From Candidatus Eiseniibacteriota bacterium (GTDB taxonomy: Bacteria; Eisenbacteria; RBG-16-71-46; CAZEPH01): a stretch of DNA of 64,000 bases. The stretch covers positions 1 to 64,000 of the forward strand of contig JBGATO010000006.1 of NCBI GenBank assembly GCA_044229145.1. The letters are read 5' to 3'. The translations under genes were made by a program, and so were the position numbers. The notes under the pieces are model-generated. The model was given only the letters and a program-made list of their open reading frames with translations. It ran no database searches and was not told the DNA's origin. This document shows positions 742 through 24,339 of the stretch, piece by piece (position 1 is the stretch's first letter; each line of letters opens with the position of its first letter).

Positions 742-893
742 GGTACGCGATGGTCGCGGCGGCGCGGGCGGAGTGCAAGCGGATTCCCTGCCGCACCTGC
801 GACGTCCCTCCACGCTGCGCGCGAAACGGTGTATCGTCGCCGGCACGATTCGGCGCGCACGGGCGCGCCGCCGCATCGCGCCAGGAGCCCCGC

Positions 894-2285
894 ATGTCCG
901 AACGCCCCGCCGAGTACGCCGCGCGCGACACCTCACGCCAGTTCGTCGAGGCGGTCAGCGGCCTCTTTGAATGTCTGGGCCGCGCCATCGTGTGCCTGGA
1001 TCGCGACTTCCGGGTCGTGCATGCCAGCGATGGCCTCGACGGATTCGCCACCCCGGGCACCAGCGAGGCCATCGTCGGTCGCGACGCCGCGAGCCTCTTC
1101 GGCGCCGACCTCTTCGGCGAGCAAGGCCGGATGCGCCGTGCACTGAGCGCCGGCGAACGGCGTGAGGGATGGGGCGCCACGCTGACACTCGACGGCGTGC
1201 CGGGTCGACTGTTGTCGATGAGCGCCGCCCCGGTCGGCGGCATCGATTCGCCGCTGTGCGATCCGCGTGTGGCGTACCTGTTGGTCGTCCGCGATGGCAG
1301 CGATCCCGGGATCGCCGAAACATCGCCGCTCACCTTCTTCGCCGGCATGGTGGGGCAGTCGCCGGCGATGCTCCGCGTCTTCCACTTGGTACAGAGCCTG
1401 AGCGAGAGCGACGCTTCCGTTCTCTTGTCGGGCGAAAGCGGGACCGGGAAGGAGCTAGTCGCGCGGGCGCTTCATCTCACGTCGCCGCGGCGCGCCGGCG
1501 CGTTCGTCGCGGTCAACTGCAGCGCGCTGCCGGGCGAGTTGTTCGAATCGGAAGTGTTCGGTCACGTGCGCGGCGCGTTTACGGGCGCGGTGCGGGATCG
1601 CGTCGGCCGGTTCGCCATGGCGCAGGGCGGCACGCTGTTCCTCGACGAAGTTGGCGAGTTGTCGGTGTCCCTCCAGGTCAAATTGTTGCGCGTGCTGCAG
1701 GAGCGCACCTACGAACGCGTCGGGGACAGCCATTCGCTGACCACCGACGCGCGCATCATCGCCGCCACCAACCGCGATCTGCCGCGCGAGGTGAAGGAAG
1801 GTCGGTTCCGCGAGGATCTCTACTACCGGCTCCGCGTGGTGCCGATCGATCTGCCGCCGCTCCGCCATCGCCGGGAGGATGTCGAGCCGTTGGCGCGGCA
1901 CCTCCTGGCACGGGTGGCGGGCCGTCAAGGACGGGCGGTACTGCTGGCACCGGATGCGGTTCGGGCGTTGCTCGCGTACGCCTGGCCGGGGAACGTGCGT
2001 GAATTAGAGAATGCGCTGGAGTACGCCGTGGCGGTGAGTCGCGGACAGACGCTCCACGCCACGGATTTGCCGGAGGAGATCCGGACCGTTCGCCCGGCCC
2101 TCGGTGCCGTGACGCCGGACGCGCCGCCGCCGCTGCCGACTCCTGCCGACGATCCGGGTGAACGCGAACGGCTCCGCAACGCGCTGGAGGCCCACCGGTG
2201 GAACCGGGCGGCTGCCGCGAAGGCTCTCGGGGTGAGCCGCACCACACTCTGGCGACGTGTCCGCGAGCTCGGTCTCGACGACTAG
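894..2285 (+). CDS. Sigma-54-dependent enhancer-binding transcriptional activator (PAS-like N-terminus, AAA+, Fis HTH)
   Basis: GESGTGKE Walker [35 protein letters not shown]-terminal [26 protein letters not shown] before ATG 894. Confidence 0.93.
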
Positions 2286-2438: not shown

Positions 2439-4634
2439 ATGACCACTCTTTCGCGGCGGCGGTTTCTACAGGTGTTCGGCGGCGGTGTCGGGCTGGCCGC
2501 CGGGGCAGCGGGCTTGCCGAAGTGGACGACCGCCCTGGCAGGCGACCGCGAGGCGGCCGGCGACATCCGCCGCATCCCCACCTACTGCGACATCTGCTTC
2601 TGGAAGTGCAACGCCATCGCCACGACGCGCGGCGGACGCCTGTGGAAGATCGAAGGCAACCCGCACGATCCGCTGTCGGGCGGCCGGCTGTGCCCGCGCG
2701 GCACCGGTGGGGTCGGCGCCCATTTCGATACCCAGCGCCTGACCTCGCCGCTGATCCGTCGCGCCGACCGCGGCGAAGAGCGATGGGTCGCGGTGACCTG
2801 GGACGAAGCGCTGCACCACATCGCCACCAAAATGCAGGCGATCAAGGCGCAGTACGGCCCCGAAGCGATGGCGCTGTTCAGTCACGGCATCGGCGGCAAC
2901 TTCCTCAAGCACACGATGAAGGCGTACGGCACGCCGAATCTGGCCGCGCCGTCGTACGCGCAGTGTCGCGGTCCGCGCGACGTCGGCTTCGAGCTCACCT
3001 TTGGCGAACCGGTGGGATCGCCCGAGCGCACGGACATCCGCAATGCCCGCTGCCTGACACTGATCGGCTCGCACCTCGGCGAGAACATGCACAACTCCCA
3101 GGTGCAGGAGTTTGCCGACGCGGTGGGCAGCGGCGCATCACTCATCGTCGTCGACCCGCGCCTGTCGGTGGCCGCGAGCAAGGCAACGCACTATCTGCCG
3201 ATCAAGCCGGGCACTGACGTCGCGCTGCTTCTCGCGTGGATGCAGGTCCTGGTCAGCGAACAGCTCTACGACCGCGCCTACGTCGACGCCCACGGCTTCG
3301 GCTTCGACGCGTTCGCGGCGGAGGTCGCGCCGTACACGCCTGAGTGGGCCTATCCAATCACCGGCATCGCCCCCGACATGATTCGCGAGACCGCGCGCGA
3401 GATGGCGCGTCATCGCCCCGCGTCTCTCGTACATCCCGGCCGCCACGCTACGTGGTACGGCGACGACACGCAGCGCAGCCGCGCAATCGCGCTGCTCAAC
3501 GCCCTGCTCGGCACGTGGGGGCGCAAGGGTGGCTTCTACCAACCGGCCAACATGGACGTGCCGGCGTATCCCTACCCGCCGTACCCGACGTCGACGCGTG
3601 GGCGCGCCGACAATCCGGGCCACCGCTTCGCATTCGGCGCGGAGACGATCACCACTGGCCTGCGTCACGCCACCCTCACCGGGGAGCCGTATCCGATCAA
3701 GGGCTGGATGGTCTACGCCACGAATCTTCTGCAAGCGATGCCGAACCAAGCGGAGACGATTCGGGCGATCCAGAACCTCGATCTGCTCGTCGTCATCGAC
3801 GTCGTGCCGAGCGAAATCGCCGGCTGGGCCGATGTCGTGCTCCCCGAGGCCGTGTATCTCGAACGTTACGACGACCTCAACGTCGAAACCTTCCGCGAGC
3901 CGTTCGTCGCGCTGCGCCAGCCCGTCGTCGAGCCGCCGGCGCAGCAGAAGCCGAACTGGTGGATCGCGCGGCAGCTCGCGCACGAACTCGGCCTCGGCGC
4001 CTTCTACCCGTGGAAGTCGATCGAGGAGTACCTCGACACGCGGTTGCGCGGTGCCGGGCTGTCGCTCGAGACCCTCAAGCAGACGGGCATCGTGCGCGGG
4101 CCGCAGCCACCGGTTTACTTCGAGGACGGCGTGACGCCGGAGTTCCCGACGCCGAGCGGCAAGATCGAGTTCTACTCGACGCAATTGCGCGACGCCGGCT
4201 TCGACCCGGTGCCGCGCTACACGGCGCACGAGGAGCCGCCCGCCGGCAGCTTCCGCTTGCTGTTCGGCCGCGCGCCGATGCACTCGTTCGGCCGCACGCA
4301 GACGAATCCGCTGCTGCGCGACGTCATGGACGAGAACGAGGTGTGGATCAATGAGGATGCCGCGCGACGCCTGGGCCTTCCCGACGGCGCATACGTCCGC
4401 CTGCGCAATCAGGACGGCGTGGTGAGCAACCGCGTGCGTGTCAAGGCCACCCAGCGCATCCGCGGCGACTGCGTCTACATGGTGCACGGATTCGGCCACA
4501 CCGCCCGCGGCATGCGCCCGGAATCGAAGAAGGGCGCGAGCGATTCGGGTCTCGTCACGCGCTACACCACCGACCCGCTGATGGGCGGCAACGGCATGAG
4601 CGTCAACTTCGTGACGCTCGATGTGGAGGCATAG
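2439..4634 (+). CDS. psrA: Polysulfide/thiosulfate reductase catalytic subunit (PsrA/PhsA-type molybdopterin oxidoreductase, Tat-exported)
   Basis: Tat motif SRRRFL; [4Fe-4S] motif CDICFWKC...LCPRG; likely Mo-ligand segment APSYAQCRGPR; C-terminal molybdopterin dinucleotide-binding domain; followed by B and NrfD subunits. Confidence 0.85.
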   Translation: MTTLSRRRFLQVFGGGVGLAAGAAGLPKWTTALAGDREAAGDIRRIPTYCDICFWKCNAIATTRGGRLWKIEGNPHDPLSGGRLCPRGTGGVGAHFDTQRLTSPLIRRADRGEERWVAVTWDEALHHIATKMQAIKAQYGPEAMALFSHGIGGNFLKHTMKAYGTPNLAAPSYAQCRGPRDVGFELTFGEPVGSPERTDIRNARCLTLIGSHLGENMHNSQVQEFADAVGSGASLIVVDPRLSVAASKATHYLPIKPGTDVALLLAWMQVLVSEQLYDRAYVDAHGFGFDAFAAEVAPYTPEWAYPITGIAPDMIRETAREMARHRPASLVHPGRHATWYGDDTQRSRAIALLNALLGTWGRKGGFYQPANMDVPAYPYPPYPTSTRGRADNPGHRFAFGAETITTGLRHATLTGEPYPIKGWMVYATNLLQAMPNQAETIRAIQNLDLLVVIDVVPSEIAGWADVVLPEAVYLERYDDLNVETFREPFVALRQPVVEPPAQQKPNWWIARQLAHELGLGAFYPWKSIEEYLDTRLRGAGLSLETLKQTGIVRGPQPPVYFEDGVTPEFPTPSGKIEFYSTQLRDAGFDPVPRYTAHEEPPAGSFRLLFGRAPMHSFGRTQTNPLLRDVMDENEVWINEDAARRLGLPDGAYVRLRNQDGVVSNRVRVKATQRIRGDCVYMVHGFGHTARGMRPESKKGASDSGLVTRYTTDPLMGGNGMSVNFVTLDVEA

Positions 4635-4637
4635 GCG

Positions 4638-5177
4638 ATGGCGCGTTTCGGCATGGTGATCGATACGCGACGCTGCGTGGGATGCACCGACTGCGTCGTC
4701 GCGTGCAAGACGGAGAACGATGTTCCCGATGGTTTCTGTCGCGACTGGATCGTCACGGAGGCCGCCGGCACCTTCCCGGACACCCGGCTCGAGATTCGCA
4801 GCGAGCGCTGCAACCACTGCGACTCGCCGCCGTGCGTCAGCTGCTGCCCGACTGGCGCCAGCCACGTGGAAGAGTACGGCCACGTCGTGCTGGTGACGCA
4901 CGATGCGTGCATCGGCTGCAAGGCGTGCCTCGCGTCATGTCCGTACGACGCGCGCTTCATCCACCCCAAGGGCTACGCCGACAAGTGCACGTTCTGCCTG
5001 CACCGTGTGAAGGACGGCCTCGACCCAGCCTGCGTCGCGGTGTGCCCAACACACTGCATGCATTTCGGCGATCTCGACGACCCGCACAGCGAGGTGAGCC
5101 AATTGCTCGCGTCGCGCCCGCACCACGCGCTGCTGCCGGACGCCGGCACCGGTCCGCGCGTGTTCTACCTCACGTAG
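4638..5177 (+). CDS. psrB: Four-cluster Fe-S electron transfer subunit (PsrB/NrfC type)
   Basis: CVGCTDCVVAC, CNHCDSPPCVSCC, CIGCKACLASC, KCTFC...PACVAVC. Confidence 0.92.
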   Translation: MARFGMVIDTRRCVGCTDCVVACKTENDVPDGFCRDWIVTEAAGTFPDTRLEIRSERCNHCDSPPCVSCCPTGASHVEEYGHVVLVTHDACIGCKACLASCPYDARFIHPKGYADKCTFCLHRVKDGLDPACVAVCPTHCMHFGDLDDPHSEVSQLLASRPHHALLPDAGTGPRVFYLT

Positions 5178-5187: not shown

Positions 5188-6126
5188 ATGTTCGAACTCA
5201 CGACGACACGCGCCAATCACCTCGTCGATCCGGTGGTGCATGTGTGGGCGTGGCAGATTCCGGTCTATCTATTCCTTGGCGGGTTGGTGGCCGGGATGAT
5301 GATCGTACAGGGCTGGTTCCTGCTCGATCCGCGGCGTCGCACGCGCCAGTCGGTGACCTACGCGCTGCCGATCCTCAGCCTCGGGCTGCTGAGCGCAGGG
5401 ATGGGAGCGCTCTTTCTCGACCTCGAACACAAGGCGTACGTGTGGCGGCTGTATACGACGTTCCGGCCCAGTTCGCCGATGTCGTGGGGCGCGTGGATTC
5501 TGATCGGCGTGTACCCGGTGCTCCTGGCGGCGATGGCACTCCGCATGCCGCACCTGGTGGCGCCGGTGCTGCCGGCGCTGCGACGCCTCGGTGACCGCTG
5601 GAACGGGGACGAGGCGGTCGTGCGGCGTATCGCGTTCGCCTGCATCGGACTCGGCGGGGCACTCGGGATCTACACCGGAATCTTGCTCAGCGCATTGAGT
5701 GCGCGCCCGGCGTGGAACAGCGCCGTGCTCGGACCGCTGTTCTTGGCCTCGGGACTATCGAGCGCGGCCGCGCTCGTCCATCTGCTCGCCGCCGACGCCG
5801 ACGAGCGCGAGACGCTGACGCGCGCCGATGCGCGCTTCGTCCTCGGTGAACTCGTGGTGCTGGCGCTCTACTTCATTGGCCTGGCGAGCGCGGCACGTGC
5901 GCAGGCCGAGGCGGCGCGCCTGTTCTTCGGGGGGCCGTTCACCGCGGTGTTCTGGGTGGGCGTGGTGGGATGCGGTCTCGTGCTGCCGCTCACACTGCAC
6001 GCACTCACGGTGACGCGGCGCATGCACCACACGGTGGTCGCGCCACTGTTGGTGCTGGCAGGCGGCCTTCTGCTGCGCGTGGTGATCGTTCAAGCGGGCC
6101 AGATCAGTCACTGGCCTCGCGTGTGA
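5188..6126 (+). CDS. psrC: NrfD/PsrC-type quinol-interacting membrane anchor
   Basis: WAWQIPVYLFLGGL, LFLDLEH, SPMSWGAW, YTGILLS...RPAWN; multiple TM helices. Confidence 0.9.
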   Translation: MFELTTTRANHLVDPVVHVWAWQIPVYLFLGGLVAGMMIVQGWFLLDPRRRTRQSVTYALPILSLGLLSAGMGALFLDLEHKAYVWRLYTTFRPSSPMSWGAWILIGVYPVLLAAMALRMPHLVAPVLPALRRLGDRWNGDEAVVRRIAFACIGLGGALGIYTGILLSALSARPAWNSAVLGPLFLASGLSSAAALVHLLAADADERETLTRADARFVLGELVVLALYFIGLASAARAQAEAARLFFGGPFTAVFWVGVVGCGLVLPLTLHALTVTRRMHHTVVAPLLVLAGGLLLRVVIVQAGQISHWPRV

Positions 6127-6145: not shown

Positions 6146-6745
6146 ATGAGCACTCTGTCTCCCGCCGCGCTCACGGCACCGCCGTCGCACGCCGCGACAC
6201 GCGATCGCGCGGACGCACAGGCGACGCTGCGCACCGCTGCGCCCTACATGAATCCGTATCTCGCGGGGATCGGACTCGGCGCGGTCCTGCTCGCCGCCTA
6301 CGTGACGATGGGCCGCGGCCTTGGCGCGTCGGGCGCCATCGGCTCGCTGGTGTCGTGGGCGCTCGGGGGCGTCGCTCCGGAGCACGCGCGCACCAATGAG
6401 TTCTTCCGCGGCTACCTCGAAGACGGCGTCGGGCATCCGCTCAAAGCGTGGCTGGTGTTCGAGGTGCTCGGCGTGATCGCCGGCGGGTTCCTCTCGGGCG
6501 CCCTCGCCGGACGGCTGGCGCGCGTGGTCGAGAAGGGGCCGCGGATCTCGGTGACCGGCCGGCTCGCGTTTGCCTTCGCCGGCGGCGCGCTCATGGGAAT
6601 CGGCGCCAAGCTCGCGCGCGGCTGCACCAGCGGCCAGGCGCTCAGTGGCGGCGCCACGCTCAACGCGGGCTCGTGGGCTTTCATGATGATGGTATTCGCC
6701 GGCGCGTATCTGCTCGCCGGCGTGATGCGGAGGGAATGGCGATGA
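6146..6745 (+). CDS. YeeE/YedE sulfur-transport family membrane protein (half-size, first)
   Basis: NPYLAGIGLG, GLGASG, GGALMGIGAKLARGCTSG. Confidence 0.85.
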   Translation: MSTLSPAALTAPPSHAATRDRADAQATLRTAAPYMNPYLAGIGLGAVLLAAYVTMGRGLGASGAIGSLVSWALGGVAPEHARTNEFFRGYLEDGVGHPLKAWLVFEVLGVIAGGFLSGALAGRLARVVEKGPRISVTGRLAFAFAGGALMGIGAKLARGCTSGQALSGGATLNAGSWAFMMMVFAGAYLLAGVMRREWR

Positions 6746-7342: not shown

Positions 7343-8008
7343 ATGCAGATCGTCTGGACGCGCAATCGCCTCCTGGCTGGTGCCGCCTTCGCGCTCGGTG
7401 TCGTCGCGCTCTTCGGTCGGCCAACGCCAGGGCATACGGTGCGCCTCGACACGCAGGAACTCGCGACCATCGTCGCCGACAAGGTCGATCATGTGAGCGC
7501 GGTCGAACTCGCCGACTGGATCATCCAGAACAAGAGCGACTATCGCCTCGTCGATGTCCGCACGCCGGACGAGTTCGCCGCCTATCACATCCCGACCGCG
7601 GAGAACGTGCCGATCACGCAACTCCCCGACTTCGGACTCGGGCGCACCGAGAAGATCGTGCTGTACTCGGAAGGCGGCATCCACTCGGCGCAGGCGTGGA
7701 TGTTGTTGCGCGCGGAGAAATACGCCGGCGTGTACATCTTGTTCGGCGGTCTCGATGCGTGGAACGACGAGGTGCTGCACCCCGTGGCGCCCGTCGCCGC
7801 GACGCCACAGCAGACGGCGGCGTTCGAACGCGCGGCACAAGTCGCGCGATTCTTCGGTGGCGCGCCGCGCGCGGCCTCCGCACACGACACCACGCTGCTC
7901 GCGCTCGCGCCACCTCCCGTCGCCGCCGCACCCAAAGTTGCTGCTCCGAAATCCCCGGCTGGCACCGCCCCCGCGGCCCCGGCCAAGAAGAAGAAGGAAG
8001 GATGTTGA
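7343..8008 (+). CDS. Membrane-anchored/exported rhodanese-like protein lacking the canonical active-site Cys, with a C-terminal Pro/Ala tail ending KKKKEGC
   Basis: N-terminal hydrophobic helix; LVDVRTPDEFAAYHIPTAENVP and LFGGLDAW rhodanese motifs; active-loop position reads VLYSEGGIHS. Confidence 0.85.
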   Translation: MQIVWTRNRLLAGAAFALGVVALFGRPTPGHTVRLDTQELATIVADKVDHVSAVELADWIIQNKSDYRLVDVRTPDEFAAYHIPTAENVPITQLPDFGLGRTEKIVLYSEGGIHSAQAWMLLRAEKYAGVYILFGGLDAWNDEVLHPVAPVAATPQQTAAFERAAQVARFFGGAPRAASAHDTTLLALAPPPVAAAPKVAAPKSPAGTAPAAPAKKKKEGC

Positions 8009-8049: not shown

Positions 8050-9369
8050 ATGCACTCCCATCGACAGCTCTCGCTCGCACTCGCGGCAGGGCTCCTCGCC
8101 GTGGCGTCGATTGCACACGCCACCAATGGTATGTACCTCGCCGCGTACGGTAGTGAGGCGGCGGGACGCGGAGGCGCCAACATCGCCATCGCCGACCGCG
8201 CACTCGGGCTCCAGGCGAATCCGGCTGGCATCGCACAATTGCAGGGACAGCACCTCAGCCTCGACGTACAGATGCTCGCGCCACGGCTGCACTACGGTGG
8301 CGATCCGTTCGGCAACACGCTCGATGCCAAGCACACGATCTTCGGCATGCCGTCGCTGTCGTACGTGCGCGGTGGCAAAGACACACCGTGGACGTGGGGT
8401 TTCGCGCTTCTGAGCCAGGGCGGCATGGGCGCCACATTCGACGGATACCACACGCCGTTCGGCACCACCGACGAGACGTACAGCGAGGTGCGCTTCCTCA
8501 CCGCGACGCCGACGCTCGCCTACTCGGTGAACGAGGACTTGTCCTTCGGCGTGTCCGGCAATGCCGGCTACTCCGACGTCACGTTCCGCTTCTATCCGCA
8601 CACCAGCTTCTATAGCGACGCTGGCACCGCCGAGGATCCGAGCGACGACATGGGCTTCTTTGGGGCCAACGTCTCGTCACGCGCCCGCGCGTTCAACTAC
8701 AGCGGCCGCGCCGGTGCGATGTGGGCGGCGCACCCGCGCGTCCAACTCGGCGCGATCTACCAGACCAAGACGCACGGCGAATACAAGAACGGCACGCTGA
8801 CGCTCAATGAAACCGCATTGGGACTCGGTATGGTCGACTACGACGCCGTCGTCGAAGGCTTCACGTGGCCCGAGCAGTACGGCGCGGGTGTGCAGCTGCG
8901 TCCGGTCGACCGGGTGATCGTCGCCGCCGACGCGCGCCGGTATCTATGGAGCGGGGCGATCCGCACCATCACGGTGCGCGGCTCCAACCCCACGGCGGCC
9001 ACCCCGGTCACCGACCCGGTGATGCCGTTCGTGTTCGACTGGAGTGACGCGTGGGCGTTCAGCGTCGGCGCCGAAGTGCGGGCGACACCGAACCTCACTC
9101 TCCGGGGCGGAGCCAACCTCGGCGACAACCCAGTGCCCGACGCCACCCTCAATCCTCTATTCCCGGCGATCACGACGAGCCATGCCACGCTCGGTGTCGG
9201 CTACACGCATCACGGCAGCACGTGGAATCTCGCGCTCGAACGCGCGTTCGAGGCGACGCAGACGAATCTCAACATCGACCAGAACGTCAATCCGTTCGGG
9301 CCGGGCGCCACGGTGAGCCACGCGCAGTGGACCGTGTCGCTCGGCATCAGCCGCGCGTTCTCGCGCTAG
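8050..9369 (+). CDS. FadL/TodX/OmpP1-family outer-membrane channel
   Basis: Signal peptide, then NGMYLAAYG..AGRGGA...ANPAG (the NPA hatch motif of the FadL family); beta-barrel-like pattern ending in ..ISRAF; GGAG RBS. Confidence 0.82.
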   Translation: MHSHRQLSLALAAGLLAVASIAHATNGMYLAAYGSEAAGRGGANIAIADRALGLQANPAGIAQLQGQHLSLDVQMLAPRLHYGGDPFGNTLDAKHTIFGMPSLSYVRGGKDTPWTWGFALLSQGGMGATFDGYHTPFGTTDETYSEVRFLTATPTLAYSVNEDLSFGVSGNAGYSDVTFRFYPHTSFYSDAGTAEDPSDDMGFFGANVSSRARAFNYSGRAGAMWAAHPRVQLGAIYQTKTHGEYKNGTLTLNETALGLGMVDYDAVVEGFTWPEQYGAGVQLRPVDRVIVAADARRYLWSGAIRTITVRGSNPTAATPVTDPVMPFVFDWSDAWAFSVGAEVRATPNLTLRGGANLGDNPVPDATLNPLFPAITTSHATLGVGYTHHGSTWNLALERAFEATQTNLNIDQNVNPFGPGATVSHAQWTVSLGISRAFSR

Positions 9370-9382
9370 AGTGGGGGACAGC

Positions 9383-9739
9383 ATGCACACCCGTACGCGA
9401 CTGGCCCTCGGGCTCGTCCTCGCCGCGGCCGCCTGCTTCGCGGTCGCCAGCGTCGCCAACGAGCGCATCGCGGCCGACACGCGCAAAGACTGCACGGCGT
9501 GTCACGACAAGCCGGGCAGCAAGCGCCTCACCGACGCCGGCAAGTACTTCGAAACGCAGAAGACGCTCGACGGATTCGACGCGATCCAGACGTCGTTCGG
9601 TCACTGTACGGCGTGCCACGACACCAAGCCAGGGTCGACGAAGCTGACGGCCAAGGGCACGCAGTTCTCGGCGTTCGCCAAGGACATGCCGGCACTCACC
9701 GAGTGGATGAAGGCGAATCACCCATCGCCGGCCAAGTAG
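9383..9739 (+). CDS. Small exported diheme cytochrome c
   Basis: Signal peptide; two CTACH motifs within an internal duplication. Confidence 0.85.
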   Translation: MHTRTRLALGLVLAAAACFAVASVANERIAADTRKDCTACHDKPGSKRLTDAGKYFETQKTLDGFDAIQTSFGHCTACHDTKPGSTKLTAKGTQFSAFAKDMPALTEWMKANHPSPAK

Positions 9740-14919: not shown

Positions 14920-15923
14920 GACGACTTCTCCGCGAGGCGGGCCGCGCCGAACACGCGCGGTTGCGTCGCCCGGTTGATGAACGGCACCAAGACATTCATG
15001 AGCAGGATCGCGTACATCACACCTTCGGGCAGACCGCCCCAGATGCGGATCAGCACCACCAGCACGCCGATGCCAGCGCCGAAGATCCACGCGCCGCGAT
15101 GCGATACCGGCGAAGTCACCGGATCCGTCGCCATGTAGACGGCGCCGAGCATGAGACCGCCCGAAAACAGCATGAATCCCGCACCCGGATACCGCTGCGG
15201 GTCGATGGTGTGCAGGATGGTGGCGAACACGGCGACGGTGGCCAGCAAGCTGGCCGGCGTGCGCCACGACATCATCTTCTTCCACACCAGGAACGCGCCG
15301 CACGCGAGGATGACCAGCCCGCCGGTCTCGCCCACCGAACCGCCGGTGTTGCCGATCATCAGGTTGAGCAGCGGCGTCGGCAGGTGCTCGAACTTGGCGA
15401 GGCCGAGCGGCGTCGCCGAGGTCACGATGTCGGCGGTGTGCGGGTGGAGGAACGGCCACGCGAAGTTGTCGCCACGGAGCTGGAACCACGAACCCGGCGT
15501 CTTGGGCCAGGTGGTGATCGCCACCGGGAACGCCGCCTGGAGGAACGCGCGACCGAGCATCGCCGGATTGAAGATGTTGTAGCCGAGCCCGCCGAAGATC
15601 AGCTTGCCGAGCAGGATGCCGAACACGCCGCCGAGAAACGCCATCCACATCGGGAAGCCGGGCGGCAGCGACAATCCGAGCAGCAGCCCGGTGATCACCG
15701 CGGATCCGTCCGCCAGCATGCGCCAGCCCTTGAACACGCCTTCGCAGACACAGGCGCCGGCGGTGCCGGCGAGCGCCACGAACAGCGCGCTCGGTCCGAA
15801 GAAGTACATGCCGGTGAGCAGCACGGGCACCAAGCTCCACACCACCGTCCACATCACCTTCGGCAGCGTCACCTGGCTGGCCAGGTGCGGCGACGCGGTG
15901 AGTAGGAATCGTTGCTCGCTCAT
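14916..15923 (-). CDS. rnfD: Rnf electron transport complex subunit D
   Basis: ASPHL, DGSAVITGLL, KLIFGGLGYNIFNPA, FMN motif TSATPL, MATDPVTSP, PEGVMYAILLMN. Confidence 0.95.
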   Translation of the reverse strand: MSEQRFLLTASPHLASQVTLPKVMWTVVWSLVPVLLTGMYFFGPSALFVALAGTAGACVCEGVFKGWRMLADGSAVITGLLLGLSLPPGFPMWMAFLGGVFGILLGKLIFGGLGYNIFNPAMLGRAFLQAAFPVAITTWPKTPGSWFQLRGDNFAWPFLHPHTADIVTSATPLGLAKFEHLPTPLLNLMIGNTGGSVGETGGLVILACGAFLVWKKMMSWRTPASLLATVAVFATILHTIDPQRYPGAGFMLFSGGLMLGAVYMATDPVTSPVSHRGAWIFGAGIGVLVVLIRIWGGLPEGVMYAILLMNVLVPFINRATQPRVFGAARLAEKSS

Positions 15924-17323
15924 ACCGCGATCGCCTCCTTCGGGGCCGGCGCGTCGACATCGGCGGCGGGTGCGCCGTCGGCCACCACCGGCGGCGCCGG
16001 GGCCGCCGTGGTCGCCTGCTTGCGCAGCATCATCTTGCTCAACTGAAACATCTGCGCGAGCGGGATGTTCGACGGACACACGTACGAACAGCAGCCGCAC
16101 AACATGCAGTCACTCAGGTGCATCGCCGCCATGTCCTCGTAGCGCCGCACGCGCGCCAAGCGGCCGAGATGCGACGGGTTGAGGAACACCGGACACGCAT
16201 CGAGGCAGCGTCCGCAGCGAATGCACGGATACACCTCGGGACGCCGGCACTCGTCGTCGGTCAGCACCAACACGCCGGTGGTGCCCTTGGTGATCGGGGT
16301 GTCGAGGCTGCCCTGTGCGATGCCCATCATCGGCCCGCCGAATACCACCTCGCGCGCCTTGGGCGCGAGGCCGCCGCAGAAGGCGAAGACGTCGCGCAGC
16401 ATCACGCCGACCGGAATGATCAAGTTAGACGGCTTGGCGATGCCGTGTCCCGTCACCGTGACGATGCGCTCGATGAGCGGCAGTCCGGTATCGAACACTT
16501 CTGCCACCGCGGCGAGCGACGCGACGTTCTGCACCAGCACGCCGACCGACGACGGCAACTTGCCGCTGGGCACCGCACGCCCCGTCACCACCTCGATCAG
16601 CATCTTCTCCGCGCCCTGCGGATACTTCACCGTGAGCGGCAGGATGGTGACGTCGATGTCGGACGGCTTGGTGCGTTCCATCGCGGCGATCGCGTCGGGC
16701 TTGTTGCGCTCGATGCCGACGATCACCTTGGCGATGCCGAGGCAGCGCATGGCGATGCGGATGCCTTCGTGCACGCGCTCCGGCTGCTCGACCATCACGC
16801 GGTGGTCGGTGGTGAGGTACGGCTCGCACTCGCAGCCGTTGACGATCAGGGTGTCGATCGTCGCGTCCTTCGGCGGAATCAGCTTGACGTGCGTCGGGAA
16901 CGCGGCGCCGCCAAGGCCGACCACGCCCGCGTCCTGCACCGCCTGCACGATCTGCTCGGGCGAGAGGTCGCGCCAATCCGGCACCATGCGCGGCCGCGGC
17001 AGCTGTCCCGAGAAGCGCTCGACGTCGATGCGGATCGCGAGTTCCGCCGCGCCCATCGGGTGCGGCCAGTACTCGATGGCCGCCACCGTGCCAGTCGCCG
17101 ACGCATGCACCGGCGCCGAGATGAAGCCGTCGGCCTTGGCGAGCAGGTCGCCGCGTTCGACGCGGTCGCCCGCCTTGACCAGCGGAATCGCCGGCTTGCC
17201 GGTGTGCTGCCGCAGCGGCAGCACCACCTGATCGGGGAACGGCATACGGCGTGTCGCCACCGCGGCCGTGAGGTCTTTCAGCTCCGGCGGATGGACGCCG
17301 TGCTGGAATGTCGTCCGCGTCAT
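15920..17323 (-). CDS. rnfC: Rnf electron transport complex subunit C
   Basis: GVVGLGGAAFPTHVK, NGCECEPYLTTD, KYPQGAEK, GGPMMG, CIRCGRCLDACP, CMLCGCCSYVCPS. Confidence 0.95.
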   Translation of the reverse strand: MTRTTFQHGVHPPELKDLTAAVATRRMPFPDQVVLPLRQHTGKPAIPLVKAGDRVERGDLLAKADGFISAPVHASATGTVAAIEYWPHPMGAAELAIRIDVERFSGQLPRPRMVPDWRDLSPEQIVQAVQDAGVVGLGGAAFPTHVKLIPPKDATIDTLIVNGCECEPYLTTDHRVMVEQPERVHEGIRIAMRCLGIAKVIVGIERNKPDAIAAMERTKPSDIDVTILPLTVKYPQGAEKMLIEVVTGRAVPSGKLPSSVGVLVQNVASLAAVAEVFDTGLPLIERIVTVTGHGIAKPSNLIIPVGVMLRDVFAFCGGLAPKAREVVFGGPMMGIAQGSLDTPITKGTTGVLVLTDDECRRPEVYPCIRCGRCLDACPVFLNPSHLGRLARVRRYEDMAAMHLSDCMLCGCCSYVCPSNIPLAQMFQLSKMMLRKQATTAAPAPPVVADGAPAADVDAPAPKEAIAV

Positions 17324-17324: not shown

Positions 17325-20300
17325 CTATTGGAACCGCTCGGCGCGCTTCACCCACTTGTCGAGATCCTTCTCCTTCGGATTCCGCGGCGTGCCGGGGTGG
17401 ATGATGCTCACCGGACACTTCTCCGCCGCGAGCACCAACTGCTGGAACGTCCCGGCACTCGCATCCTTCACGTAGGCCTGCTTCTTTGCGTTGTACGAGA
17501 ACAGCTTGCCATTGAGGTTCGTGCACTCGTTGCAGGTGGTGCAGCGCGCCGACTCGATGTACGCCTCGAGTCCGCCTTCGTCCTCGGCTTCCGCCACCGC
17601 GGTGGCAGCGGGCGCCGGTGCGGCGGCGGCCGGTGTGGCGGCGGCGGGCGCCGCGGCGGCCGTCGCGGCTGGTGCCGGCGCCGCCGCGGGCGCCACCGGC
17701 GGCAGCGCCGACGGAGCCGGCAACGACTTCAGCAGATCGGTCACCGTGCCGCCGTTACCCGCCATGCCCATGAGACCTTCGGCGAGACGGCGCGCGATCA
17801 CCTGCGGATAGCGCGTCTTGAGGTCGGTGAGCTTCGCCTCGTACTCATCGCGCAGCGCCTGCATCTTGAGTTCGAACTCGCTCTCCACCATGCCGGCGAC
17901 GGTGTCGCGCACCGCGTCGGGCACGTCGAGGCCGGCGATCTCGCGCAGCGTGTGCCAGTAGTCGAGGCGCTCTTCGGCCAGCATCACGATCTCCGGCGCC
18001 ACCGCCACACGGCCAAGCCGGCGCGTGTCGTCGAGGACGTAGATGAATGGCGTCTTCCCGTCGCGCTCGTCACGCGGCAGGGCGACGAACTCGCCGAACG
18101 GCACCATGTCGTCGTTCCAGTCGTCGCGCTTGACGCGGCGGAAGTGCTTGCTGAAACGCGTCTCGGTGGCGGCCCAGTCGGCGGTGGTGAGCGGCAGCGT
18201 CATCGTCTGCTCGGCACCCGCGTCGTCGACGTACGTGAGGTCGTACGTCGGCCACGTCTCGTCGAGCATCGGGTTGCCGTCCAAGTGCAGACGGTCGGCC
18301 ATCGTCGGGCCGCCGGACGGGTCGTAGACCAAGAACGGCACCGCGCGCGACTCGAGAGCCAGCTTCGCGGCGTGCGCCGAGGCGTCGTCGGCGAGTCCGT
18401 GCTCCGGCGGACACGGCGTGTGGATGATGAACACCGCCGGGTGGTGCGACTGCAGACCGCGCAGAACGCCATTGAGCAAGTGCGACGGCGATGCCTGCGA
18501 CGACTGCACCACGAACGCGGTGCGGTGCGCCATCGCCAGGAACCCGAGCTCCTTGCGCATCTCCTGCTTGCCGTGCTGGTCGCGGCCGTAGGTCGCCATG
18601 TCGGAGATTTCGCCGAGGAAGCCGGACGTGCATGCCTGACCGCCGGTGTTCGAGTACACCTGCGTGTCGAGCACGATCACGCGGATCGGCTTGTCCGAAG
18701 CCAGCAAACGCGACAGGTTCTGGAAGCCGATGTCGAACATTGCGCCGTCGCCGCCCACCGCGAAGATCGGCGGACAGAGCTGGAACTCGGCGTCGGAGAA
18801 CTCCTTCCAGTCGAAGTGCTGGAAGAAGCGGTCGTGCACCGACGGATCGTAGGCGTCTTCGAGTTCGAGCTCCGCGCGGCGGATGAGCGCGAAGCCGTCC
18901 GCCATCTTGCGCATGTGCCCTTCGAACAGACCGATCGCCACCGAGGGCGAATCCTGGAACAGGTGATTCACCCACGGGAACGGATACGGATTGAGCGGGA
19001 AGGTGCTCGCCCATACCGACGAACAGCCGGTGGAGTTCGCCATCGCCATCTGCGCGCGACCGTGACCGCCCGGGCCCTCGGTGTAGCGCCACAGCAAGTC
19101 CTTGAGGCCGTGCACGAGGTCGGTAAGGCGTTCGAGTTTCTGCTTCTTCTCGTCGCTGAGCGGCACCGCGACGCTGCCACCGCGCGCATGCGCCGCCGAG
19201 TCGAGGTCGGCGTCTGCCACCAGCAGCTCGCGCGCCTGGTGATCGAGCTTGCCGATCAACGCGTCGAGATTCTGCACGTGCCGGGCGACGCGCGGACCCA
19301 TCAGCGCGTTGACCGCACTCAGCACCAAGTGGATGCCCGTCTTCTCGCCACAGCCCATGCACGCGCCGTCGCCGCCGGCCATCGACATGTAGTTTTGCTT
19401 CTTGAGCAGGAGCGACGACAGCACGCCGATGCCTTCGTTGATGTCGAAGACGTTGATGTAGTCGTCCGGCGTCTCCGGCAGCTTCTGCCAGATCTGGAAG
19501 CCGCGGCGCAGCGACGCCACCTTCGCGTCGTCCTGCTTCACCGTCACCAGCGCCTTCTCCGGGCACACCTCGACACACAGGTTGCAGCCCTTGCAGGTGT
19601 ACGGGTTGATGAGGATGTTGAGCAGCGCGCCGTTGCCCTTCGTCTTGCCTTCGGGCACGTCGAAGAACGGCTGCGTCTTGGCCAGCGGCATGTCGCGCAG
19701 CACGGTGAGCACGCGCGCGAACTCGGCGTCGAGTTGCGCCTTGCGCTCGTTGTCCGCGTCGAGCTTGGCGACCACCGGCGCGTACGCCGCCGCCACCGTG
19801 TCGGCGAAGGTGACGAACGCGTCGCCGCCGAGCATCTGCTTGCGCACCTCGCGGCCAAGGTTCTTGGCGATCTGCCGCACCTTGTCCACCGCGCCGCCGT
19901 CCGCTTCCGCGATGTCGAATGCGGCGCGCAGCGCGTCATCGATCTGCGTCACGATCGCCGGGATCGCCGAGTCCGGACACTGCACCCAGCACTGCCCGCA
20001 GCCGGTGCACTTCGACGCCACGAAATCCGGCACCTCGAAGCGGATATCGGTCATGTCGCGGAACGAACTGGTCGACGCCGGAATCGTGCTGAGGGCGACG
20101 AACGGGTCGGCGAGCGGATCCTGTCCGACCTTCGACGGGAAGCACACGGTCTCCCAGAAGCGGCCTGGGTCCGCGAGGCCCGCCTCGACGTGCGACCCGG
20201 CGACCAGCGCCGGCACGCCCGCCGCGCCCTTGCGCTCGGCCGGCGCGTCGGTGAGCGTCGCGACGTCGAGTTCGCGCACCTCGTCGTAGCCGCGGCGGAT

Positions 20301-22364
20301 CACCCGCACGTTGTCCTCGACGATGCGGTCGCCGAGCTTGCCGAACTTCTTGACCTGCTGCGCGCGAATGCCCTCGAACAACTTCGCCTCGTCGAGCCCG
20401 GCATCCTTGGCGAGCGTGGTGGCGCGGAAGAAGGCGCCCATGAACGCCGCGCCCTGCATGCGGTAGCGCAGGTCTTGCGACGTCGCTTCCTCACCGGCGA
20501 TCTTGAACGCGTCGAGCGAGAACACGCGGATCTTGCGGTCGCGAATGACGCGGCGCGCGTCGGCCGGCAGCGTGTTCCACAGATCCTGCGGCGACAGTCC
20601 ACTCTGGATCACGAACGCCCCCCCGCTGGCCAAGCCGGCCAGCGGATCGCTGTGCCGGAACACGTTGGCGTCCGGCGACAGCACGACGTTCACGTGCTTG
20701 AGTTCGCAGTTCAGCCGAATCGGCTCCTTGGCGAACACCGCGTAGAACGTCGTCGGCTGGCCCTTCTTCTCCGAGCCGTACTTGGGATTGGCCTTCACGT
20801 GCAGACCGCACAACTCGAACACGGTCATCGTCACGTTCTTGCCCATGGTGATCGCGCCCCACCCGCCGACCGAGTGGATGCGCAGCGCCGTCGCGCTGTC
20901 CGGCAGCAAGTTGATGTCGCCCGCGGTCGCCAGCGACAGCTCCGGCAGGTGCGGGTACGACTCGAGCAACTGCTCCTGCCAGATCTGCATCTTGGGCAGC
21001 TTGGTGCCCTGACGCACGAAGTCGATGCCGAGGTAGAACTGCCGGCGCTGCGCGCCGCCGTCGAGGATGTTCTCGACCGCCGCGATGAGGTCGCCCGGCT
21101 GCAGGTCGCGCGAGCCGAGACCGAAGCAGCCGCTGAAGAAGTCCGGCACGTCCTGCGGCGCCAACGGCGTCACGCCGGCGTGCGGCACCGAGGCCTTGGC
21201 GCGGCCGTTCTCGACACCCTTGCCCATCGCCGCGCGAATCTCGCGCAAGAGCGGCGCGTCCACCGCGAGCGGCTGGTCGACGCGCTCGAGCACCACCACC
21301 GCCTTCTTGCCCTTGAGCAAAGCGGTGATGCAGTCGGCCGGGAACGGACGGAACATCGACACGTTCAACACGCCGACCTTGAGCTTGCGTTCCTTGCGCA
21401 GGTAATCGGCAACCGCCTCGGCGTTCGGGATCAACGATCCTTGGCCGGCGATCACGTAGTCGGCGTCATCCAGCTTGTAGCCGGAGGCGCGCGCGTAGCG
21501 GCGGCCGGTGAGCGCCGCGAACTCCTCGAACGCGCGGTCCGCGAGCGGCTGCACGTGGTCGAAGTAGAACGGCCGCTGCGCGGCGACGCCCTGCTGGTAG
21601 CTGTCCTGGTTCTGCACCACGCCAACCATCGCCGGGTAGTCGAGGTTCATCAGCTCGGGCACGCGGCGCCGCGTCTCGCCGAACACCATCCGCTGCGCCG
21701 GCGTCGGCGAGTCGATGATGTCACTCGGCTCGCCGAGGTACGCCTTCACCAACTCACGCTCCGGCACCACCGCCGACTCGATGACGTGCGACGTCAAGAA
21801 GCCGTCCTGCGCGCTGATGCCCGGATTCAGCGAGAGCTCCGCGATGCGGTGCGCGATCAGCGTAAAGTCGGCCGCTTCCTGCACGTTCTTGGCGAAGATC
21901 TGGAAGAAGCCGGTGTCGTCGACGGCGTGGTAGTCGTCGTGCCCGCAGTGCACGTTGAGACCTTGCTTGGTGATCGCGCGCGCCGCGACGTTGAGCACGT
22001 AGGTGAGCCGCTTGCCGACCGCCGGGTAGAGCGACTCGTGCATGTAGGCGATACCCTGGCCGCTCGAGAAGTTGGTCGCCCGCAATCCCATCATGCTGAG
22101 GCCCGCGGTCACCGCCGCCGCCGCGTGCTCGCCTTCCGGCTCGAAGAAGATCAGCCGGCGGTTGAACGCATTCGGCACACCGGCGCCGACCGCCGCCGCC
22201 CATCCCTCGCCCATCTGCGTCGATGGCGTGATCGGGTAGGCACCGGCGGCCTCGCTGGCCGCGGTTTCCGACAGAACGACCGCCGCGCTGCCGTCCAGTG
22301 CGTCCGGCATTCCGGGGAACTGCGGCGTCGTGGGGGTCGTGGGGGTTGCTGTCCCAAGCTTCAT
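17325..22364 (-). CDS. por: Large single-chain pyruvate:ferredoxin oxidoreductase (NifJ-type) with insertions and an extra C-terminal ferredoxin domain
   Basis: AYPITPST, ARA, gamma domain HSVGGWGA, CTGCGQCWVQCP/CKGCNLCVEVCP, GACMGCGE, TGCSSVW, GGDGAMFDIG..YSNTGGQ; Pro/Ala linker then CTTCNEC...KCP. GGAG RBS 7 nt before ATG 22364. Confidence 0.9.
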   Translation of the reverse strand: MKLGTATPTTPTTPQFPGMPDALDGSAAVVLSETAASEAAGAYPITPSTQMGEGWAAAVGAGVPNAFNRRLIFFEPEGEHAAAAVTAGLSMMGLRATNFSSGQGIAYMHESLYPAVGKRLTYVLNVAARAITKQGLNVHCGHDDYHAVDDTGFFQIFAKNVQEAADFTLIAHRIAELSLNPGISAQDGFLTSHVIESAVVPERELVKAYLGEPSDIIDSPTPAQRMVFGETRRRVPELMNLDYPAMVGVVQNQDSYQQGVAAQRPFYFDHVQPLADRAFEEFAALTGRRYARASGYKLDDADYVIAGQGSLIPNAEAVADYLRKERKLKVGVLNVSMFRPFPADCITALLKGKKAVVVLERVDQPLAVDAPLLREIRAAMGKGVENGRAKASVPHAGVTPLAPQDVPDFFSGCFGLGSRDLQPGDLIAAVENILDGGAQRRQFYLGIDFVRQGTKLPKMQIWQEQLLESYPHLPELSLATAGDINLLPDSATALRIHSVGGWGAITMGKNVTMTVFELCGLHVKANPKYGSEKKGQPTTFYAVFAKEPIRLNCELKHVNVVLSPDANVFRHSDPLAGLASGGAFVIQSGLSPQDLWNTLPADARRVIRDRKIRVFSLDAFKIAGEEATSQDLRYRMQGAAFMGAFFRATTLAKDAGLDEAKLFEGIRAQQVKKFGKLGDRIVEDNVRVIRRGYDEVRELDVATLTDAPAERKGAAGVPALVAGSHVEAGLADPGRFWETVCFPSKVGQDPLADPFVALSTIPASTSSFRDMTDIRFEVPDFVASKCTGCGQCWVQCPDSAIPAIVTQIDDALRAAFDIAEADGGAVDKVRQIAKNLGREVRKQMLGGDAFVTFADTVAAAYAPVVAKLDADNERKAQLDAEFARVLTVLRDMPLAKTQPFFDVPEGKTKGNGALLNILINPYTCKGCNLCVEVCPEKALVTVKQDDAKVASLRRGFQIWQKLPETPDDYINVFDINEGIGVLSSLLLKKQNYMSMAGGDGACMGCGEKTGIHLVLSAVNALMGPRVARHVQNLDALIGKLDHQARELLVADADLDSAAHARGGSVAVPLSDEKKQKLERLTDLVHGLKDLLWRYTEGPGGHGRAQMAMANSTGCSSVWASTFPLNPYPFPWVNHLFQDSPSVAIGLFEGHMRKMADGFALIRRAELELEDAYDPSVHDRFFQHFDWKEFSDAEFQLCPPIFAVGGDGAMFDIGFQNLSRLLASDKPIRVIVLDTQVYSNTGGQACTSGFLGEISDMATYGRDQHGKQEMRKELGFLAMAHRTAFVVQSSQASPSHLLNGVLRGLQSHHPAVFIIHTPCPPEHGLADDASAHAAKLALESRAVPFLVYDPSGGPTMADRLHLDGNPMLDETWPTYDLTYVDDAGAEQTMTLPLTTADWAATETRFSKHFRRVKRDDWNDDMVPFGEFVALPRDERDGKTPFIYVLDDTRRLGRVAVAPEIVMLAEERLDYWHTLREIAGLDVPDAVRDTVAGMVESEFELKMQALRDEYEAKLTDLKTRYPQVIARRLAEGLMGMAGNGGTVTDLLKSLPAPSALPPVAPAAAPAPAATAAAAPAAATPAAAAPAPAATAVAEAEDEGGLEAYIESARCTTCNECTNLNGKLFSYNAKKQAYVKDASAGTFQQLVLAAEKCPVSIIHPGTPRNPKEKDLDKWVKRAERFQ

Positions 22365-22401
22365 GACCACACTCCGTTTCTGGGCTTGCGGCGCTTCGGA
22401 A

Positions 22402-23271: not shown

Positions 23272-24339
23272 TTATTCGAGCTCCGACGCGTCGACGAGGC
23301 TGAGGATCCACGAGGCGAGGTGATCGACCTTGGGATCGCTGGCCGGCGCCGGCGTGCTGCCGTTGAGGGCGGACTTCGCGGCGGCTGGTGTCGCGGCCGG
23401 TGTCGCCGGCGCGGCCGGCGCGGGTGCCACCGCCGGCGCGGCCACATCGACCAGCGCGAGCGCTTGCAACTGCCGCAACTCGTCGAGCTGACGTTCGGGC
23501 GACAAGCCGCCCCGCGTCTGCGCGATGCGGCCCTGCGGCACGAACGCGATGTCGAGCCGCTTGGCCGGCGTCTCGCCCGCCGCCGGGTCATGCACGAAGT
23601 GCGCGGCGTTCTCCGACACCCACGCCACCACCGCCGGCCCGGCGAACGCGGCGAACCGCGCGAAGCAGGCGCCGTCCGGCGTCTGCGCCACGAACGTCCC
23701 CGGCGTGATCAGGCGCACCAGCGCAGCCGGCGCGCATTCGCCGCGCACCACCAGCACCAGCTTTTGCCGGCCGTCGAGGAACTCGGCGAGATCACCCGCG
23801 CGCACGTCGGCGCCCTCGACGTCGATGACCAACGGCGGCGCGACCTGACGCTCCGCCGTCGACCACGTCTCCGGCGGGCAGGCGCGCAACAGCGCCGCCT
23901 CGATCGCCTGATCGCCTTGGTGTTGGCGTTCGAGGCGCACCACGCGCGCCGCGCCGAACGCCCGCCCGAACTCGCCGAGCGCCGCGTTCACCGCGTCGCG
24001 CATCCGGCCGCCCGACGGCACGCGCACCACGAAGGCCTCGCGGGTGGATTCGGCCACCGTGCGCAGCACGCGCAGCGCGTCACCGATGCGCAGCTCCGCC
24101 GCCACATCGATGGTGTCCGTGTGCCCCGCGAGCTGGGCAAAGCGCTCGGCGTCGACGTGCGCGGTGGCGAACACGCCGAGCTCGAGCCGCGCACGTCCGC
24201 CGTCGTTCATCTGCGAGGAGGCGTGGCTGGCCAGATAGCCACGCACCGCCTCCGCGGTCTCCGCGACCGCGGAGTGATACGCGTTGAGGGCGCCCGACAC
24301 TGCGTCGAGCGCGGCGGCGATGCGGTCGTCAGACGGCAT
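23272..24339 (-). CDS. Hypothetical protein; apparent degenerate paralog of the PFOR C-terminal TPP-binding domain
   Basis: Start overlaps the korB 3' end and stop lies 3 nt before rnfB; colinear similarity by eye to the neighbouring PFOR beta domain, without the GDG motif or Fe-S cysteines. Confidence 0.7.
   Translation of the reverse strand: MPSDDRIAAALDAVSGALNAYHSAVAETAEAVRGYLASHASSQMNDGGRARLELGVFATAHVDAERFAQLAGHTDTIDVAAELRIGDALRVLRTVAESTREAFVVRVPSGGRMRDAVNAALGEFGRAFGAARVVRLERQHQGDQAIEAALLRACPPETWSTAERQVAPPLVIDVEGADVRAGDLAEFLDGRQKLVLVVRGECAPAALVRLITPGTFVAQTPDGACFARFAAFAGPAVVAWVSENAAHFVHDPAAGETPAKRLDIAFVPQGRIAQTRGGLSPERQLDELRQLQALALVDVAAPAVAPAPAAPATPAATPAAAKSALNGSTPAPASDPKVDHLASWILSLVDASELE

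Follow-up and report, generated by a model that had tools for sequence, protein, structure and literature searches.

The periplasmic protein Sud of Wolinella succinogenes binds polysulfide sulfur on one cysteine and passes that sulfur to PsrA, and it is among the described systems closest to the protein considered here. The gene for the latter occupies positions 7343 to 8008 of a 64,000-nucleotide stretch of DNA from a Candidatus Eiseniibacteriota bacterium (contig JBGATO010000006.1, positions 1 to 64,000; the window in what follows). It encodes a membrane-tethered protein, termed the tailed rhodanese, whose rhodanese loop lacks cysteine and whose C-terminal arm ends in one. Its rhodanese domain has detectable homology to the Sud structure (1QXN; E 1e-9, profile alignment). 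Both proteins have a single rhodanese domain, periplasmic in Sud and probably so in the tailed rhodanese, and each is encoded with or acts on a PsrABC-type reductase. Unlike Sud, a soluble homodimer that holds polysulfide on a loop Cys, the tailed rhodanese has a serine in the loop, its Cys at the end of a tail of about 45 residues, a conserved membrane helix in place of a cleaved signal, and a link to the YeeE family of transporters.

SoxY, the periplasmic carrier of SoxYZ, resembles the tailed rhodanese in placing a reactive Cys beside Gly at the tip of a flexible C-terminal arm (GGCGG). Its fold, an Ig-like beta sandwich partnered with SoxZ, is unrelated to rhodanese, and unlike the tailed rhodanese it has neither membrane anchor nor polybasic stretch and continues past its Cys. 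Homology to SoxY or DsrC is seen neither in the Pfam scan of the tailed rhodanese, which returns no domain other than Rhodanese, nor among its Foldseek neighbours, which are exclusively rhodanese domains (e.g., 3tp9, the Cys-less Alr3790 and the membrane-bound YgaP). YgaP of E. coli likewise holds a rhodanese domain on the inner membrane, but it keeps the catalytic loop Cys (PDB titles refer to S-sulfhydration and a C63D mutant) and has no Cys tail; its anchor is C-terminal and its domain cytoplasmic.

Small partners of YeeE-family transporters offer a second comparison. TsuB/YeeD, a TusA-like protein, is needed for function of the thiosulfate transporter TsuA/YeeE (PMC11582611; this paper, PMC7449682, PMC9324843 and PMC9371685 are drawn on throughout as excerpts). 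Like the tailed rhodanese, TsuB is a small Cys-bearing protein encoded beside such a transporter, but it is soluble, cytoplasmic and of TusA fold, whereas the tailed rhodanese is of rhodanese fold, tethered to the membrane and apparently on its periplasmic side. That the SoxY Cys might pass sulfur into SoxT1A, a YeeE-like channel, is discussed as conceivable (PMC11582611). Dahl and co-workers propose that the PmpA and PmpB halves form a heterodimer equivalent to full-length YeeE (PMC11582611). The two YeeE halves encoded in the window, YeeE1 and YeeE2, fit the PmpA/PmpB description, and the correspondence of each with a half of full-length YeeE is taken from the same source (PMC11582611).

The gene cluster itself has been noted before. 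A phsABC-pmpA/B-sulfurtransferase cluster occurs in Ca. Electryonea clarkiae, Ca. Lernaella stagnicola and Caldithrix abyssi, with a transporter::sulfurtransferase fusion in the Ca. Lernaella stagnicola metagenome-assembled genome (MAG) (Williams et al. 2022, PMC9324843). Its genes stand in the order seen in the window, with a reductase ABC, two short YeeE-family transporters and then a sulfurtransferase (PMC9324843). The authors call the transported species and what the sulfurtransferase does unknown (PMC9324843). Within the main-text excerpt, supplements aside, loss of the catalytic Cys and the terminal Cys go unmentioned, and the word 'rhodanese' occurs 0 times (PMC9324843).

The open reading frame for the tailed rhodanese looks genuine, because its ATG lies 1 nt past the stop of the YeeE2 gene, GGAG stands 8 nt 5' of that ATG, and AlphaFold2 (92-sequence alignment) models the product with a mean pLDDT (predicted local distance difference test) of 90.4. 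On the forward strand it translates into 221 residues with the C-terminus ...APAKKKKEGC and a TGA stop, and residue 221, at the C-terminal end, is its sole Cys. A preliminary description of this DNA, made by reading the sequence, had reported a single Cys as the last residue after a Pro/Ala linker and a Lys cluster, and translation bears this out. From the N-terminus, a membrane helix is followed by the rhodanese fold, an extra helix with the motif FGGxPR, the Pro/Ala linker, the basic cluster and Gly-Cys-COOH; the model shows helix 7-24, a rhodanese core, helix 155-170 and an unstructured tail, whose pLDDT of 64-78 is above what a free linker would be expected to give. The helix 155-170/FGGxPR extension lies outside every Pfam family in the scan. 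Measured from FGG to the C-terminal end, the linker spans 16-56 residues in nearly all of 198 members, with a median of 46.

Membership of the rhodanese family is clear (PF00581 at residues 56-142, E 1.1e-17, 64.7 bits vs a cut-off of 22.2), and NCBIfam returns no specific model at or above its cut-off. The loop departs from that of active rhodaneses. The preliminary description had placed Ser where the catalytic Cys is expected in the loop VLYSEGGIHS, and a profile alignment to PDB rhodaneses agrees, setting Ser109 on the catalytic Cys ('ivLySeggihaaqa' vs 6mxv 'MYFYCGGGFRSALV'), His114 on the loop Arg and Ser115 on the loop Ser. Across 33 sequences S109, G111, G112 and H114 are invariant and position 110 (E110) is 100% acidic. 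The CxxGxR[ST] loop of an active rhodanese/thiosulfate sulfurtransferase is thereby absent from the tailed rhodanese, with Ser109 and His114 at two of its defining positions. What the protein has instead is the signature of a swinging arm, an invariant Cys (153/154, below) at the tip of a flexible C-terminal extension whose Pro/Ala-rich linker varies.

Two collections of homologs describe how widely this anatomy is kept: a close set of 119 sequences (90%-identity clusters, 55-77% identical to the query) and a wider set of 150 representatives of 50%-identity clusters, with identity down to about 32%. Genes and their neighbourhoods are compared in two sets of loci, counts referring to loci with enough DNA. 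The EGC set holds 80 loci from species-representative genomes, all MAGs, and the RRRGC set (L081-L160) represents a more distant clade with tails RRRGC or RRRAC from soil-type metagenomes. The family as a whole comprises 4066 representative clusters at E <=0.001 and 95 at E <=1e-30, and its MAGs come from soil, groundwater and sediments.

Among the close homologs, 118/119 end in [KR]n-EGC and one ends EGF. Where genes are translated through to the stop, the terminal Cys is present in 77/78 genome loci and 76/76 metagenome loci (153/154). The wider set retains it in 120/150, with tails including KKKKEGC, RRRGC, RRRNTC, KIRDGC and FRRQC. Conservation of the terminal Cys is far above chance. The 30 representatives without it comprise 3 canonical multi-domain rhodaneses with a loop Cys, 25 in which the query match ends before residue 200, which suggests fragments or frameshifted ends, and 2 that reach the tail region (P0144, ending EGG, and P0155, running on past the tail). 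The sole genome locus of the 78 without a terminal Cys, in the EGC set (L018:2776-3381), encodes 201 residues ending ...EMPT, as if the copy were truncated or frameshifted.

Loss of the loop Cys accompanies the tail. Across the 150 representatives the catalytic-Cys position is occupied by S (114), G (14), A (13), C (5), T (1) or D (1), with a gap in 2, so that 145/150 lack a loop Cys; the 3 canonical multi-domain rhodaneses that have one have no terminal Cys. Two family members carry both a loop Cys and a terminal Cys, P0172 (LYCNEDS) and P0265 (IYCKTDS), and may be intermediates between ordinary rhodaneses and the tailed form lacking the loop Cys. The joint pattern of a terminal Gly-Cys and a lost loop Cys, which the preliminary description had named as the alignment result to look for, holds across at least nine phylum-level groups. 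Labels within the EGC set are Eisenbacteria, Acidobacteriota, Gammaproteobacteria, Ignavibacteriota, Bacteroidota, Gemmatimonadota, Chlorobiaceae, Calditrichaeota and Myxococcales.

Two other accounts of the C-terminus were considered and rejected. Selenocysteine read-through at the TGA stop does not apply, homologs using TGA, TAG and TAA as their stops (43/20/15 in one locus set and 65/10/1 in the other); this mixture of stop codons makes EGC the true C-terminus. PEP-CTERM and MYXO-CTERM are C-terminal sorting signals, and a signal of that type was dropped: the tail has no C-terminal hydrophobic helix, and its basic cluster precedes rather than follows the Cys.

Gene neighbourhoods tie the tailed rhodanese to the split YeeE channel. 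YeeE1 lies upstream in 75/75 loci of the EGC set and 27/27 of the RRRGC set (102/102 together), and in the EGC set a YeeE2 reading frame with GYCPG is found in 69/70 parsed loci. Among 13 longer relatives, 9 are natural fusions in which an N-half Sulf_transp domain of YeeE2 type is joined through a transmembrane segment to a rhodanese domain with terminal Cys; the other 4 have the rhodanese domain only. The gene thus behaves as that of a channel accessory should, standing directly after both YeeE halves or fused to one of them. From the locus counts in both sets and the fusions, the trio YeeE1-YeeE2-Rhd (Rhd denoting the tailed rhodanese) is the invariant unit, and the tailed rhodanese belongs to the split YeeE channel as its constant third component.

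Other neighbours are clade-specific. The EGC set preserves the order PsrA-PsrB-PsrC-YeeE1-YeeE2-Rhd wherever DNA suffices. The order in the RRRGC set is an exported tandem rhodanese, YeeE1, YeeE2, the tailed rhodanese and a cytoplasmic SufS/CsdA-like class-V aminotransferase (e.g., L094:5934-9963). Upstream, PsrA is found in 55/55 EGC and 0/9 RRRGC loci and the tandem rhodanese in 0/66 and 21/21, respectively; downstream, the SufS-like gene is found in 0/68 and 38/38 and a FadL-type gene in 7/66 (including Eisenbacteria L005 and Ignavibacteriae L011) and 0/35. In the tandem rhodanese a Sec signal is combined with a loop that has a Cys (GYCHIGQQAT), and the RRRGC cassette looks like a periplasm-to-cytoplasm route for uptake of sulfane sulfur. 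Two independent sulfur contexts, PsrABC on the one hand and the tandem rhodanese with the SufS-like enzyme on the other, share the trio. Psr as the defining partner was accordingly rejected, the RRRGC clade having the trio without Psr, and FadL was rejected as a conserved partner on its counts. Of the partners named in the preliminary description, YeeE stands as the one invariant partner, PsrA stands for the EGC clade only, and the FadL-type channel is an occasional neighbour; reductase and FadL are clade-specific additions. The RRRGC cassette often lies beside a histidine kinase and a response regulator. In a Chlorobiaceae-labelled MAG (L026:8748-12403) the genes that come after the cassette encode a MobA-like molybdenum-cofactor guanylyltransferase, then a histidine kinase and a sigma-54 response regulator, which is a different regulatory arrangement for the same operon.

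The membrane tether proposed in the preliminary description is supported by the conserved N-terminal helix, in which A15 and A22 are at least 90% conserved (92 diverse members), and by the natural fusions to a YeeE half. In the YeeE-fused forms the helix must be transmembrane. The junction between the YeeE2 C-terminus (…VERRMAARHTER) and the rhodanese N-terminus (MQIVWTRNR) is basic, with conserved R190/R191/R195 in YeeE2 plus R7 and R9 in the window protein. In the fusions this junction is a basic short loop between two helices, which by the positive-inside rule argues for a cytoplasmic location. A crystal structure of StYeeE has its N-terminus outside and its C-terminus inside, with helix H7 reversing the topology between the halves (PMC7449682). 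Since YeeE2 corresponds to the N-half plus a fifth helix, its C-terminus is expected inside, with the rhodanese helix leading out. The Cys-bearing partner enzymes of both cassettes are exported, PsrA by a Tat signal and the tandem rhodanese by a Sec signal. The rhodanese domain and arm are therefore placed, provisionally, in the periplasm, on the side of the channel that bears YeeE1 C160, the equivalent of Cys293.

Physical association of the trio was also modelled. With three chains, the rhodanese as partner and a 33-row alignment for each, the prediction for YeeE1+YeeE2+Rhd reaches an ipSAE score of 0.54 (runs 0.54, 0.48 and 0.54) vs 0.21 for the best control, which is weak support; the runs agree in at least 84% of contacts, and partner pLDDT is at least 69. 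In calibration the mark was reached by 116/157 solved complexes and 2/215 mismatches, but values of ipSAE <=0.60 hold just 18 of the 157 solved complexes and both mismatches, and with custom alignments and three chains the calibration is only approximate for this case.

The reading favoured here, to which we give a probability of roughly 0.55, is that the tailed rhodanese is a tethered, periplasm-facing carrier arm for sulfane sulfur that serves both a sulfur enzyme of the periplasm and a channel of the split YeeE (PmpAB) type. The preliminary description had suggested, by analogy, a persulfide carrier whose Lys patch would attract polysulfide and which would hand sulfur on to PsrA. The reading favoured here draws on anatomy, conservation and analogy to Sud and SoxY, and every chemical step that follows is one we infer. 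With the N-terminus in the cytoplasm, one helix would hold the domain and its arm in the periplasm beside the channel mouth. The terminal thiolate would take sulfane sulfur from polysulfide, S8 or the persulfide of a partner enzyme to form Cys-S-Sn(-). Gly220, directly before the Cys, would give steric freedom and access to the thiol, the Lys/Arg cluster might stabilise the anionic chain or dock the tip, and the Pro/Ala linker would provide reach. The arm could then shuttle sulfur between a periplasmic enzyme and the cysteines of the YeeE channel, of which YeeE1 C160 would lie at the periplasmic mouth. PsrA, Tat-exported and part of a quinol-linked PsrABC reductase, would be that enzyme in the window; the exported tandem rhodanese would take its place in the sister clade, with the SufS-like enzyme on the cytoplasmic side. 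The Cys-less rhodanese domain would serve for docking or as a cradle and would not itself be a catalyst, and sulfur might flow so as to feed PsrA, to be imported, or both.

Several observations weigh against a carrier arm of this kind. The known arms differ in their tips, the SoxY Cys being followed by Gly-Gly and the DsrC Cys being penultimate, and we know of no carrier arm that is polybasic or that ends exactly at its Cys. The complex score is weak and adds little, because the natural fusions already make association probable beforehand, and it says nothing on where Cys221 lies. Nor does the reading give a reason why a periplasmic reductase should need a membrane channel in its operon. An acidic vestibule on YeeE1/YeeE2 that receives the Lys tail is speculation: a conserved-charge scan of the two halves showed no clear one. 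The periplasmic indentation of StYeeE is positively charged (PMC7449682) and so would not attract the tail.

A more elaborate version, offered tentatively and carrying clearly less weight than the carrier arm as such, has the catalytic Cys transferred from the loop onto the far end of a tether. Under the guidance of the Lys/Arg cluster and of the conserved loop residues Glu110 and His114, the Gly-Cys-COO(-) tip would load in the protein's own Cys-less cradle and then swing to the channel or the reductase. With the YeeE halves (4 + 5 + 1 helices in all) the protein might form a three-protein sulfur translocon reused by several pathways, among them respiratory Psr and uptake from the exported rhodanese to the cytoplasmic SufS-like enzyme. 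P0172 and P0265 could be intermediates in such a relocation.

The tail might instead be a gate or redox sensor, a possibility we consider unlikely. Here the basic tail would enter the periplasmic mouth of split YeeE, and the terminal Cys would form a reversible disulfide or persulfide bond with a channel Cys, opening and closing transport or signalling the availability of sulfane sulfur, in place of bulk carriage. The invariant partnership with YeeE and the YeeE-rhodanese fusions are what such a device would lead one to expect, and a role in signal transduction has been proposed for SoxT1B, which is YeeE-like (PMC11582611). Regulators moreover flank both cassettes, as a sigma-54 activator in the window and as histidine kinases with response regulators in L026, L094, L093 and L103. 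A linker as long and variable as this one (16-56 residues) is, however, better suited to a distant partner than to a local plug, and the co-conservation of exported sulfur enzymes in both cassettes suggests a partner for hand-over.

Still less probable is a carrier for another element, in which the terminal Cys would bind selenium (as selenopersulfide), tellurium or a thiophilic metal that the cassette reduces or imports. PsrA-like enzymes do include a selenite reductase with rhodanese accessory genes. The YeeE halves match the YedE selenium-transporter model TIGR04112 (41 bits vs a cut-off of 200), the sister-cassette tandem rhodanese matches ExtH of a selenite/tellurite reduction operon (E 3.5e-15, 56 bits vs a cut-off of 200), and the SufS-like enzyme has a sub-threshold match to selenocysteine lyase (SclA model), but all three matches are weak and far under the family cut-offs. 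PsrA, by contrast, matches the Thermus polysulfide reductase over its full length, and no selenoprotein machinery is seen beside the annotated loci. An anchor on the membrane surface, with the polybasic stretch on anionic lipid head groups and the terminal Cys as covalent attachment or second anchor of a structural or scaffolding subunit without carrier chemistry, would have an analogy in the polybasic-plus-Cys C-termini through which eukaryotic small GTPases associate with membranes and could make a pure scaffold of a Cys-less rhodanese domain such as that of Alr3790, but it is very improbable, given that we know of no bacterial machinery to modify such a C-terminal Cys, that a Cys in last position leaves no CaaX-like box, and that an association confined to sulfur enzymes and a sulfur channel speaks for chemistry.

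The coordinates of the remaining genes of the operon are collected in Table 1. PsrA scores 495 bits against NCBIfam PhsA, under the cut-off of 694, and matches Thermus thermophilus PsrA (2VPW-2VPZ) over its full length at E 2.7e-216; the twin-arginine signal in its translation makes it periplasmic. In YeeE1 the Cys of RGCTSGQ (C160) is invariant in 33 sequences, and an N-in/C-in topology is inferred; in YeeE2 the Cys of GYCPGTS (C109) is invariant and the C-terminus is basic. A homolog of the sigma-54 activator is also found upstream in loci L019, L037 and L069. The small exported protein after the FadL gene, for which Pfam and NCBIfam give no match, is probably, from its two CxxCH motifs, a dihaem cytochrome c that closes the operon; at the corresponding place the Eisenbacteria locus L005 (3959-4315) has a 118-codon reading frame. 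In the genome from which the window comes, the tailed rhodanese occurs once, no YeeE halves besides these two are present, and a single TusA gene lies at another place. Farther along the window, on the minus strand, a fused 2-oxoacid oxidoreductase-like protein adjoins an RnfC/Nuo51-like flavoprotein, and a second, split pair of this type and two CitMHS-family transporters follow.

Table 1. Features of the tailed rhodanese, its operon and other genes of the window
Feature	Positions	Strand	Evidence and remarks
Sigma-54-dependent transcriptional activator	750..2285	+	Pfam Sigma54_activat E 1.8e-68, AAA+, Fis-type HTH_8, weak PAS_4; upstream of operon
PsrA/PhsA-type molybdopterin catalytic subunit	2439..4634	+	Pfam Molybdopterin, Molydop_binding, Fe4S4; twin-arginine signal MTTLSRRRFLQ
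PsrB four-cluster ferredoxin subunit	4638..5177	+	Pfam Fer4_11 and related; NCBIfam NrfC/DsrO/TtrB-like
PsrC (NrfD-type) quinol-oxidising membrane anchor	5188..6126	+	Pfam NrfD E 1.8e-42
YeeE1, PmpA-like YeeE/YedE half (C-terminal-half type)	6146..6745	+	Pfam Sulf_transp profile positions 168-310
YeeE2, PmpB-like half (N-terminal-half type) with fifth C-terminal membrane helix	6742..7341	+	Pfam Sulf_transp profile positions 1-155, DUF6691
Tailed rhodanese	7343..8008	+	221 aa then TGA; membrane-tethered, rhodanese loop without Cys, C-terminal Cys arm
N-terminal membrane helix, residues 7-24	7361..7414	+	Preceded by R7, R9; predicted signal anchor, N-terminus inside; AlphaFold2 pLDDT 87-96
Rhodanese-homology domain, residues 56-142	7508..7768	+	Pfam PF00581; Foldseek probability 1.00
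Pseudo-active-site loop VLYSEGGIHS, residues 106-115	7658..7687	+	Ser109 for catalytic Cys, conserved Glu110, His114 for Arg
Family-specific extension, helix 155-170 and FGGxPR	7805..7870	+	AlphaFold2 helix; F171, G172, G173 >=90% conserved
Pro/Ala-rich linker, residues 177-214	7871..7984	+	Variable in sequence and length; AlphaFold2 pLDDT 64-78
Tail KKKKEGC	7985..8005	+	Cys221 last and sole Cys
FadL/TodX-family outer-membrane channel	8050..9369	+	Signal peptide; Pfam Toluene_X E 5.4e-26; occasional neighbour
Small exported protein, two CxxCH motifs (CTACH twice)	9371..9739	+	GC content at third codon positions (GC3) 0.90; directly 3' of FadL gene, last of + strand run
RnfC/Nuo51-like flavoprotein	15920..17323	-	Adjoins the 1681-residue protein
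Fused pyruvate/2-oxoacid:ferredoxin oxidoreductase (POR)-like protein	17325..22370	-	1681 residues; POR_N, PFOR_II, POR, several Fer4, TPP_enzyme_C
Second, split POR pair	24329..27221	-	
CitMHS-family transporter, first of two in tandem	27250..28737	-	About 490 residues
CitMHS-family transporter, second of two in tandem	28925..30397	-	About 490 residues

The tailed rhodanese is real and strongly conserved, and it cannot use the textbook loop Cys; its function as a carrier is the reading that anatomy and analogy suggest, and it is probably an undescribed swinging-arm sulfur carrier. Full-text searching of the literature (subscription journals and supplements lying outside its scope) gave no description of the terminal Cys or the Cys-less loop, the cluster itself having been noted once (PMC9324843). 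Public names for family members are 'rhodanese-like domain-containing protein', 'rhodanese-related sulfurtransferase' and 'hypothetical protein'. For annotators this is a warning that such 'rhodanese-related sulfurtransferases' cannot work through the loop-Cys mechanism. Questions stated as open are the route of sulfane sulfur across the inner membrane and the way in which periplasmic reductases obtain sulfur that is insoluble or at low level (PMC11582611, PMC9371685, PMC9324843). If the carrier reading is true, the tethered Cys arm, as a fixed partner of the short YeeE-family channels, would bring a concrete, testable component to the question of how sulfur crosses the membrane.

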